A stretch of DNA of 64,000 nt from a bacterium (GTDB lineage Bacteria; Actinomycetota; Acidimicrobiia; Acidimicrobiales; CATQHL01): positions 11,370 to 75,369 of the forward strand of contig JAPPDX010000093.1 of assembly GCA_028824415.1 (NCBI GenBank), given 5' to 3'. The notes beneath the pieces were generated by a model. It made no database searches and was not told the origin of the DNA. It saw only the letters and a program-made list of their open reading frames with translations. The translations under genes and the position numbers were made by a program. Below, piece by piece: positions 35,103 through 37,034 of the stretch (positions are counted from its first letter, which is position 1; every line of letters begins with the position of its first letter).

Positions 35103-35456
35103 CTAGACCAGTTCGATGCGGGCCATGGGGGCGTTGTCGCCGTAGCGGGGCCCGACCCGCAGGATCCGGGTGCAGCCGCCGGCACGGTTGGCGTAGCGCG
35201 GACCGATGTCCGAGATCAGCTTGTCGGCGATCTCCCGGTCGTTCAGGAACGCCACGATCTGCCGATGGTTGTGCAGGCCGCCCTTGCGCGCCTTTGTGAT
35301 CAGCTTCTCGGCCACCGGCTGCATCGCCTTGGCCTTGGCCTCGGTCGTCACGATCGCCTCGGCCGCTACCAGGGACGCCACGAGATTCGCCAGCATCGAC
35401 TTCTGGTGTGAGGCGCTGCCGCCGAGGCGACGGCCCTTGCGGGGTCGGCCGGGCAT
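35103..35456 (-). CDS. rplQ: 50S ribosomal protein L17
   Basis: TTEAKAK...EKLITKA...GDNAPMA. Confidence 0.98.
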   Translation of the reverse strand: MPGRPRKGRRLGGSASHQKSMLANLVASLVAAEAIVTTEAKAKAMQPVAEKLITKARKGGLHNHRQIVAFLNDREIADKLISDIGPRYANRAGGCTRILRVGPRYGDNAPMARIELV

Positions 35457-35466
35457 GACTGGCTCC

Positions 35467-36399
35467 TCAGTCTCCCGAAGCCAGGGCGAGACCCAACTCG
35501 TCGAGGCGGGCCGTCACCTCGTCCAGGGACTTCTCACCGAAGTTCGGGATCGCCAGCAGTTCCAGCGGCGTCCGCTCCAAGAGGGCGCCGACCGTCGTGA
35601 CCTGCGCCCGCTTCAGGCAGTTCCGGGGCCGCTCGGAGAGTCCCAGGTCCTCGATGGGGCGCACCAGATCCGACGGCATCTCCGAGGTGGTCGTGGGATC
35701 CAGACCGTCCGGCAACGACACCTCGGCGAGGTTCTCCACGAGCTGCATCAGCCGCCGCAGGATGCCGCCCGCAGTTGCCATCGCCTCCGACGGCGTCACC
35801 GTTCCGTCGGTCTGCACGTCCACGACCAGTTCGTCCGCCGCCACATCCCCCTCCGCGTGGCTCGCTTCCACTTCGTAGAAGACGCGCCGCACCGGCGAGA
35901 AGAGGGCGTCCACGGGGATGTCGCCGATGGTGCCGCTCGTCGGCCGGCTCTCCGCGCCGCTGTAGCCGATCCCCTGCTCGACGGTGACGTCGGCGGCGAA
36001 TCGCGCCCGGCTGTTGAGCGTTGCGACGTGCAGGTCGGGATTCAGCACCTCGACATCGGGGTTGACTCTGAAGTTCGCGCCCGTCACCTCCGCGGGACCC
36101 AGGACGTCGATGCGCAACTGCACCGGCTCGGGGCTGTGGCTGCGCAGCACCAGGTCCTTGAGGTTCAACACGATGTCGGAGATGTCCTCGACGACCCCCT
36201 GCAGGGTGTCGAACTCGTGCAGGGCCTCGTCGAAGCGGACGTGCGTCACCGCCGCGCCCGGAATCGACGAGAGCAGCGTGCGCCGCAGGGCGTTGCCGAT
36301 CGTGTGGCCGAACCCGGGATCGAGCGGCCCGACGACAAACTTCTGGCGGCTGCCCTCGGCGGTGGCCGGAGAGACCGTGGGATGTTTGATCTCAAGCAT
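35467..36399 (-). CDS. rpoA: RNA polymerase alpha subunit
   Basis: GFGHTIGNALRRTLLSSIPG, LHEF, CTD NCLKRA/NFGEKSL; canonical operon position. Confidence 0.95.
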   Translation of the reverse strand: MLEIKHPTVSPATAEGSRQKFVVGPLDPGFGHTIGNALRRTLLSSIPGAAVTHVRFDEALHEFDTLQGVVEDISDIVLNLKDLVLRSHSPEPVQLRIDVLGPAEVTGANFRVNPDVEVLNPDLHVATLNSRARFAADVTVEQGIGYSGAESRPTSGTIGDIPVDALFSPVRRVFYEVEASHAEGDVAADELVVDVQTDGTVTPSEAMATAGGILRRLMQLVENLAEVSLPDGLDPTTTSEMPSDLVRPIEDLGLSERPRNCLKRAQVTTVGALLERTPLELLAIPNFGEKSLDEVTARLDELGLALASGD

Positions 36400-36416: not shown

Positions 36417-37034
36417 CTACTTGCTGTAGAGCTCGACAATCAACTGCTCGCGAATCGGTACGTCGATCTGGTCGCGGCTGGGAACCGACACCACGTTGGC
36501 CGCCCAACCGTCTTCGACGACCTCCAGCCAGATCGGCGGTACCCGGTCCAGCACATCGACGTTCCATTGCAGGGTGGTGATTCCCCGCGACTTCTCCTTC
36601 ACGGCGATCGCATCGCTCGCGGAGACTCGATAGCTGGGGATGCTGACCCGCCGTCCGTTCACCGACACGTGGCCGTGCAGCACGAACTGCCGGGCCTGGG
36701 GCCGCGTCGCCGCCCAGCCGGCCCGGTACACCACGTTGTCGAGTCGCAACTCGAGGTAGGTCAGCATGTTCTCGCCGGTCACGCCCGTGCGGCGGCTGGC
36801 CTCGGCGTAAAGGTTGCGGAACTGGCGCTCCGTGAGCCCGTAGGTGAAGCGGGCCTTCTGCTTCTCCTGGAGTTGGAGGAGGTACTCCGACGTGGTGGTG
36901 CGTCGCCGCGAGCGACCGTGCTCGCCGGGTGGGTACGGGCGCTTGTCAAGCGCCACCGTCTCGCCCTTGGTACCGAAGATGTTCGTCCCCAGCCGGCGTG
37001 ACACGCGGGCCTTCGGTCCGGTGTAGCGGGACAT
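36417..37034 (-). CDS. rpsD: 30S ribosomal protein S4
   Basis: MSRYTGP, LELRLDNVVYR, LIVELYSK. Confidence 0.98.
   Translation of the reverse strand: MSRYTGPKARVSRRLGTNIFGTKGETVALDKRPYPPGEHGRSRRRTTTSEYLLQLQEKQKARFTYGLTERQFRNLYAEASRRTGVTGENMLTYLELRLDNVVYRAGWAATRPQARQFVLHGHVSVNGRRVSIPSYRVSASDAIAVKEKSRGITTLQWNVDVLDRVPPIWLEVVEDGWAANVVSVPSRDQIDVPIREQLIVELYSK

Follow-up and report, generated by a model that had tools for sequence, protein, structure and literature searches.

The Alpha-Beta' Contact in Described Polymerases

In the RNA polymerase of Escherichia coli, R191 of the alpha subunit forms a salt bridge with D410 and D413 of beta', residues of the double-psi barrel which bears the catalytic carboxylates; substitution R191C makes a defective, rifampicin-resistant enzyme more active and, when alone, confers temperature sensitivity, and the equivalent of D410N in Mycobacterium tuberculosis abolishes the same bridge (PMC9177976, in the excerpts drawn on here). 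A preliminary description of the locus treated below had held R191 to be needed for the assembly of beta'; these excerpts uphold that statement in part, namely for the bridge to beta' and the temperature sensitivity of R191C, and not beyond. Binding of beta' is furthermore impaired by substitutions of K86 and V173 and by insertions at positions 180 and 200, K200 being conserved in bacterial alphas and in alpha2 of Francisella, not in alpha1 (excerpts of PMC3294249). Binding of beta is determined by R45 (PMC3294249, PMC13202282, passages concerned). The alpha sheet 180-207 and helix 34-50 form a groove which closes on beta', and these interfaces vary by lineage (PMC13202282, in part).

According to the relevant passages of PMC10800992, PMC11137121 and PMC10926696, the sites of compensatory mutations in M. 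tuberculosis (Mtb) include rpoA T187A/P, V183, E184, A180 and T181 as well as rpoC D485N/H, V483, I491, L516P and H525N; in our alignments they map to residues 179-186 of the alpha described here (Mtb 180-187) and to residues 512-520 and 545-554 of its beta'. E. coli R191C and the Mtb mutants in the rpoA hairpin and in rpoC (D485N, V483, I491, L516) thus concern the same residues and the same interface as the present case. However, those are single recent mutations on a rifampicin-resistant background, whereas here both sides are changed and fixed family-wide, and, unlike in the Mtb compensatory mutants, the genus shows no resistance-type difference in the rifampicin region of RpoB relative to outgroups. 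Bacillus subtilis is another system to which the family can be likened, since there, too, the alpha groove and its partners are lineage-specific, with an effect on assembly order; the B. subtilis case, as far as the excerpts of PMC13202282 go, concerns the geometry of R45 and extra helices in beta and beta' rather than loss of the R191 bridge, and the present family is known from sequences.

The rpoA Gene and Its Setting

The window, that is, the whole stretch of 64,000 nucleotides analysed, contains an rpoA gene in the order S13-S11-S4-RpoA-L17-TruA, as judged by NCBIfam matches of the neighbours; the order rpsM-rpsK-rpsD-rpoA-rplQ of E. coli is the same. A search of the whole window with Rfam gave no match. 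The features needed here are:

35467..36399, minus strand: rpoA, the sole RNA polymerase alpha subunit gene, 310 aa, coordinates including the stop codon, with Pfam and TIGR02027 matches
35497..35682, minus strand: alpha C-terminal domain, residues 240-301 (PF03118, E = 2.8e-19)
36417..37034, minus strand: rpsD (ribosomal protein S4), upstream neighbour of rpoA (NF003717, 259 bits)
35103..35456, minus strand: rplQ (ribosomal protein L17), downstream neighbour of rpoA (TIGR00059, 126 bits)

In the product, Pfam recognizes the N-terminal dimerisation domain at residues 25-216 (PF01193, E = 4e-18), interrupted by the insert domain at residues 54-168 (PF01000, E = 1.9e-26). The protein scores above the cut-offs of two NCBIfam equivalog models (TIGR02027, 295.6 bits with a cut-off of 227.8; NF003519, 311.3 bits with a cut-off of 277), so that domain architecture, equivalog score and operon position all identify it as a bacterial RpoA. 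A longer open reading frame from 36567 was rejected, and 36399 is taken as the start, because the longer frame overlaps rpsD and all 17 congeners aligned share the start MLEIKHPT/MLEIKHP.

The host of the variant is an uncultivated, sponge-associated Acidimicrobiales bacterium. The sequencing runs which hold most of the rpoA stretch belong to two studies and are labelled sponge metagenomes; only small shares occur in coral-reef and marine runs.

An Alpha Subunit with a Variant Hairpin

Architecture, operon position, R45, K86, V173, V180 and the determinant in the C-terminal domain are common to this alpha and the canonical RpoA of E. coli (b3295). The differences lie at the tip of the hairpin directed at beta' and in one further loop, listed here together with the intact GNALRR of helix H1:

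35827..35871, minus strand: hairpin tip, residues 177-191, reading VEASHAEGDVAADEL (E. coli alpha 187-201), without R191 and K200
35959..35973, minus strand: GIGYS loop, residues 143-147 (E. coli GRGYV 149-153), R150 replaced by I
36280..36297, minus strand: GNALRR in helix H1, residues 35-40, R40 being the equivalent of E. coli R45, intact

Aligned with RpoA of E. coli K-12, H181 takes the place of R191, A182 of V192, G184 of Q194, D185 of R195, V186 of T196, A187 of D197, E190 of K200 and I144 of R150; in other words the tip (E. coli 190-200) is replaced by R191H, V192A, Q194G, T196V, D197A and K200E, to which R150I is to be added. The motif R-V-(E/G)-Q...D-(K/R)-L, which is typical of RpoA without defining it, is absent. 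By contrast, R40 (R45), K81 (K86), V163 (V173) and V170 (V180) are kept. The C-terminal domain retains the equivalents of R265, N268, C269, G296, K298 and S299, which we take to be the DNA-binding determinant, and has E for K297. The preliminary description, made from the window alone, was thus right that the hairpin departs from the beta'-contact motif, that GIGYS stands for GRGYV, and, apart from K297, that the GNALRR helix and the DNA-binding residues are intact.

The best sequence matches of known structure are alpha chains of actinobacteria (PDB 5tw1, 7vpd and 5uh5; E = 5e-80 over residues 2-307); they read veatrveqrtdfdkl at the hairpin, as against VEASHAEGDVAADEL here. An AlphaFold2 (AF2) model of the monomer, made from 25 sequences, places strands at residues 170-181 and 187-197, with the tip at lower confidence; the model as a whole is of only moderate confidence (mean pLDDT 70.2, pTM 0.39) and is used solely for the strands of the hairpin.

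Distribution of the Variant

The sequence was aligned with 29 relatives, the resulting set holding 21 members of the family (the genus itself, g1, and a sister genus, g2) and nine representatives of neighbouring families. The variant hairpin is found in 21/21 family genomes and in 0/9 of the neighbouring families, where relatives read VEPTRVEQSTN(F/Y)DRL instead of VEASHAEGDVAADEL. At the position of R191 the family has P (15 genomes), T (4), S (1) or, in the genome studied, H; at that of K200 it has E (19) or T (2); and the residue corresponding to R150 is non-basic throughout (I, T, F or V; 21/21). The nine neighbouring families have R at the first two positions without exception and R (8) or K (1) at the third. 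R45, K86, V173 and V180 are retained in the family. Over its whole insert domain (PF01000), alpha scores 89-103 bits across the 21 family genomes, compared to 110-126 bits in 20 genomes of other families; the lower scores indicate that alpha of the family is more diverged overall, not only in the hairpin.

Comparison with further Acidimicrobiia, for which the preliminary description had called, showed the variant only within the genus: among 80 further loci from the collection of species genomes, 71 have R191, and the nine which lack it are 81-93% identical to the query and are assigned to the same genus because they reach at least 80% identity. Among bacteria in general, R191 is R in 126 and missing in 20, and K200 is K or R in 129 and missing in 17, of the 146 RpoA sequences that could be compared among 150 cluster representatives of the whole protein library; both are lost in seven, one of which comes from this family. 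The Arg of GRGY, on the other hand, is R in only 76 of the 150 representatives (K in 24, another residue in 50), so that the change to GIGY, though real, is unremarkable; R191 and K200 are much better conserved.

Changes in Beta' and Beta

In the genome studied, rpoB and rpoC are single genes located on another contig. Beta' was compared between 20 genomes of the family and ten other families plus E. coli. The position of D410, the published partner of R191, holds S (12 genomes), G (3), N (1) or K (1) in the genus and K in the three sister-genus genomes, D being found in 0/20; it is D in 10/10 outgroup families and in E. coli. In the genome studied this residue is S514 (Mtb D485), and E517 corresponds to position 413, at which the acid is retained (E or D in 29 of 30 beta' sequences, including all family members; the exception is A in outgroup L066). 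Of the tether between alpha R191 and beta' D410/D413, the Arg and Asp410 are therefore gone and the acid at 413 remains. A second change lies in a strand of the same barrel, where position 443 is G in 20/20 family genomes and E in 10/10 outgroups and E. coli. The suggestion of the preliminary description that beta' has co-evolved is in this way supported by the sequences, and a change in physical contact may go with it. This support has to be read against the background: at 56 of 1,330 beta' positions the residue conserved in outgroups is absent from the whole family, and the chance that one of two partner positions named beforehand falls among these 56 is about 8%, that is, mildly improbable. 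In a quick tree of beta', a branch with SH-aLRT 100 sets the family apart, as a single origin would lead one to expect.

A third change concerns region H, where the nearly universal motif FQETTRVLTEAA, canonical in 10/10 outgroup families and in E. coli, has become FQTTTQVLTESA in 20/20 family genomes (FQETTR to FQTTTQ; E1327T, R1330Q and A1335S in E. coli numbering):

rpoC residues 1233-1244, own contig C131, L036:8008-8043: region-H variant FQTTTQVLTESA

An exact codon-degenerate scan of 185,579 species genomes retrieved FQTTTQVLTESA in 18 stretches only, all of them from Acidimicrobiales or Acidimicrobiia metagenome-assembled genomes (MAGs) or from MAGs whose records also gave the rpoA of the family; among the species genomes scanned the variant is apparently restricted to this family. 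A search of the literature for the structural role or contacts of E1327, R1330 or FQETTR found no statement.

In beta, 27 of 1,213 positions are family-specific in the same sense, the changes being mostly conservative. Near the C-terminus one acidic residue has disappeared (E in outgroups, A, T or S in the family, at own position 1122), and no family-specific change in beta adjoins G1215/R1216 (E. coli numbering), the contact of R45 named in the excerpts of PMC13202282; compensation on the beta side was thus not found. Loss of omega as a correlate was considered and rejected, as rpoZ is present. In the rifampicin-binding region, rpoB of the sister genus (L082-L084) reads V where E. coli has F514, and in one outgroup rpoB (L087) S531 is replaced by Y, to all appearance a natural residue of resistance type; the genus studied has neither.

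A Contact Probably Lost on Both Sides

The reading which we consider probable is that the family has a sole, homodimeric alpha whose contact between hairpin tip and beta' barrel was dismantled on both sides, after which the tip drifted. Alpha would act as the usual homodimer, made from one gene; the contact of its tip (E. coli 190-200) with the double-psi barrel would have been given up by loss of R191, K200 and R150 on the alpha side and of D410 and E443 on the beta' side, while docking would still proceed via R45, K86, V173, V180, the strands of the hairpin and helix H1. That E443 touches alpha is inferred from its location in the barrel and from nearby Mtb sites such as rpoC L516P.

A tip freed of that contact would be expected to drift, and its variability suggests relaxed constraint. 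Within the genus (18 sequences) the nine positions of the tip have a mean entropy of 0.73 bits, compared to 0.26 in the rest of the N-terminal domain, and eight of nine are variable, compared to 74 of 216; among 301 windows that of the tip is the 16th most variable, those above it lying in the N-terminal tail and the interdomain linker, and the tip appears to vary about like a linker. In the nine outgroup families the relation is reversed (0.36 in the tip, 0.53 in the rest). Drift would also account for the tip of the genome studied differing even from its congeners (SHAEGD versus TPGERD). Taken together this points to a tip which probably is no longer in specific contact; assembly or catalysis may be affected.

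Some observations do not favour this reading. The acid at 413 is kept, the chance expectation for the beta' change is about 8%, and there are exceptions among spirochaetes, Bacilli and Hopanoidivorans (see below). Moreover, an Arg lies three positions further along in most congeners (PGERD, 15/21) and could re-form a bridge. The corresponding alternative, that the contact was rewired and is as tight as elsewhere through new partners, seems unlikely to us; candidates are the shifted Arg of PGERD or a charge pair of reversed sign between beta' K410, as in the sister genus, and alpha E193 or D195. It agrees with it that R stands at position 194 in 15/21 family members, that E193 and D199 are invariant or nearly so, and that beta' 410 is K in 3/3 sister-genus genomes and in one congener. 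However, the tip of the genome studied is devoid of any Arg, the replacements are heterogeneous (S, G, N and K in beta'; P, T, S and H in alpha), and within the genus the tip ranks with the most variable parts of the protein, which tells against a tight contact.

Less probable still is adaptive retuning, in which the catalytic barrel, released from the bridge, would work at another rate or respond differently to temperature, parallel to E. coli R191C and to Mtb rpoC D485N and rpoA T187, which compensate costs of rifampicin resistance; as it concerns the cause and not the anatomy, it may overlap with the dismantling proposed above. R191C does raise the activity of a defective enzyme and is temperature-sensitive alone (PMC9177976, in part), Mtb has compensatory hot spots in the hairpin and at beta' 483-491 and 516 (PMC10800992, PMC11137121 and PMC10926696, passages concerned), and E1327T/R1330Q in beta' are unique to the family. 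Yet in the rifampicin region of RpoB (E. coli 505-575) the genus and several outgroup families have identical sequences, which leaves no primary defect to be compensated, and a link to rifampicin resistance as the cause was rejected; in addition, the high variability of the tip fits drift better than a tuned contact.

The Number of Alpha Subunits

Francisella alpha1 (PMC3294249, excerpts; PDB 6wmp chains A and B) has, like the alpha described here, a substituted K200 equivalent and an intact R45 equivalent, and the two Francisella subunits show complementary losses, alpha2 lacking R45 and alpha1 K200. The preliminary description had accordingly seen in a degenerate beta'-binding hairpin beside an intact R45 the possible beta-bound half of a heterodimer, with a different, second alpha encoded elsewhere to bind beta'. 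This reading has very little left in its favour. Francisella carries two rpoA genes, whereas every genome searched here has a single one (41/41), and the present alpha does not belong to that system. In the genome studied (91.4% complete, 138 contigs), the rpoA protein query (E up to 10) and the models PF01000, PF01193 and PF03118 gave one match each, and protein search found one rpoA in each of 40 relatives. Two matches in relative G021 (residues 1-255 and 244-307) are the halves of one gene at two contig ends. PF01000 gave exactly one match above the family cut-off in 41/41 genomes; six extra partial matches among them reach only 11-18 bits (E 0.01 to 0.96). A second rpoA was thus found, with protein query and Pfam models, neither in the genome studied nor in the 40 relatives, which include four single-contig genomes with the same kind of hairpin (G003, G014, G016 and G018; one rpoA each). 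The preliminary description had itself named a single rpoA in such relatives as grounds for giving up the heterodimer. Nor is there complementary loss of beta and beta' determinants as in Francisella, the single copy keeping R45 and lacking R191 and K200.

Among the representative proteins surveyed, three (P0002, P0006 and P0019) unite two alpha N-terminal domains and one C-terminal domain in a single polypeptide. In P0006 the first N-terminal domain has GTILQR and a canonical hairpin and the second GNALRR and a degenerate hairpin, an arrangement resembling two covalently joined alphas with complementary loss of motifs; in P0002 the halves look alike, and duplication in the assembly may be the reason.

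That the hairpin is a local sequencing or assembly error, a way out which the preliminary description had also named, is barely credible, for although the tip differs from TPGERD of the congeners at four of six residues by five point substitutions within 15 nt, these bring no insertion, deletion or frameshift, the whole family has lost R191 and K200, the hairpin codons are spanned with 0 differences by a contig from the probable source run, and contigs from two runs (X2 and X3, one sample) of a second study reproduce the sequence exactly (35720-35989 and 35777-36020, 0 differences).

Changes in Other Lineages

The MAG of "Candidatus Hopanoidivorans cymbastelae" (G041; L179) has an alpha hairpin four residues shorter (VEETSGGNDQL); its beta' (L404, ORF of 1,508 aa), 64.5% identical to that of the genome studied and canonical in region H, carries D413N and E443H and, immediately ahead of the helix that bears D410, an insertion of 28 aa, with D410 kept. 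Judged by these sequences, this second, independent lineage of Acidimicrobiia supports a link between alpha and beta'.

Elsewhere the picture is different. A motif scan of genomes for E443G gave at least 119 stretches, and 77 of the 80 loci taken further gave the motif on translation. Among the 77 listed, two are from this family and four are from MAGs of Spirochaetaceae/Spirochaetales which also have D410A; most of the others listed are gut-type Bacilli/"Tenericutes" MAGs which keep D410, one having N. The four spirochaete genomes and one Bacilli genome examined for alpha have a single rpoA with a canonical hairpin:

L288, L293, L298 and L305: spirochaete beta' with D410A and E443G
L380-L382 and L384: spirochaete alpha with canonical TRVGQRTDYDKL hairpin and GRGY

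Changes in beta' can therefore occur with alpha unaltered, and the coupling is not strict. This is understandable, because the beta-bound copy of alpha contains the same residue and because D413 remains. A search for a codon at E443 not beginning with G had 0 matches in 401 Acidimicrobiia genomes, using a pattern of flanking DNA for which there was no positive control, and carries no weight.

Significance of the Variant

The variant is a lineage-specific form of an ordinary enzyme, not half of a two-alpha pair and not a new kind of system, and it adds only modestly to what is known. What it does show is that a degenerate beta'-contact motif in alpha does not by itself mark a two-alpha polymerase. 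A further, doubtful possibility is that the catalytic barrel is naturally untethered from alpha, with R191-D410 and E443 gone and FQETTRVLTEAA turned into FQTTTQVLTESA. If the changes in alpha, D410/E443 and region H form one co-adapted network, altered assembly or catalytic tuning would follow; if so, the family would be a fixed natural counterpart of the mutations which compensate costs of rifampicin resistance, and a system in which the effect of the tether on the catalytic rate could be tested.

Alpha R191 and beta' D410 are highly conserved and belong to the interface region in which the compensatory mutations of rifampicin-resistant E. coli, Salmonella and M. tuberculosis are concentrated. 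That a free-living, sponge-associated lineage is without both residues means that the bridge is dispensable in nature, and the enzymes of the family and of its sister families offer a natural comparison from which the contribution of the bridge to assembly and catalysis could be learned.
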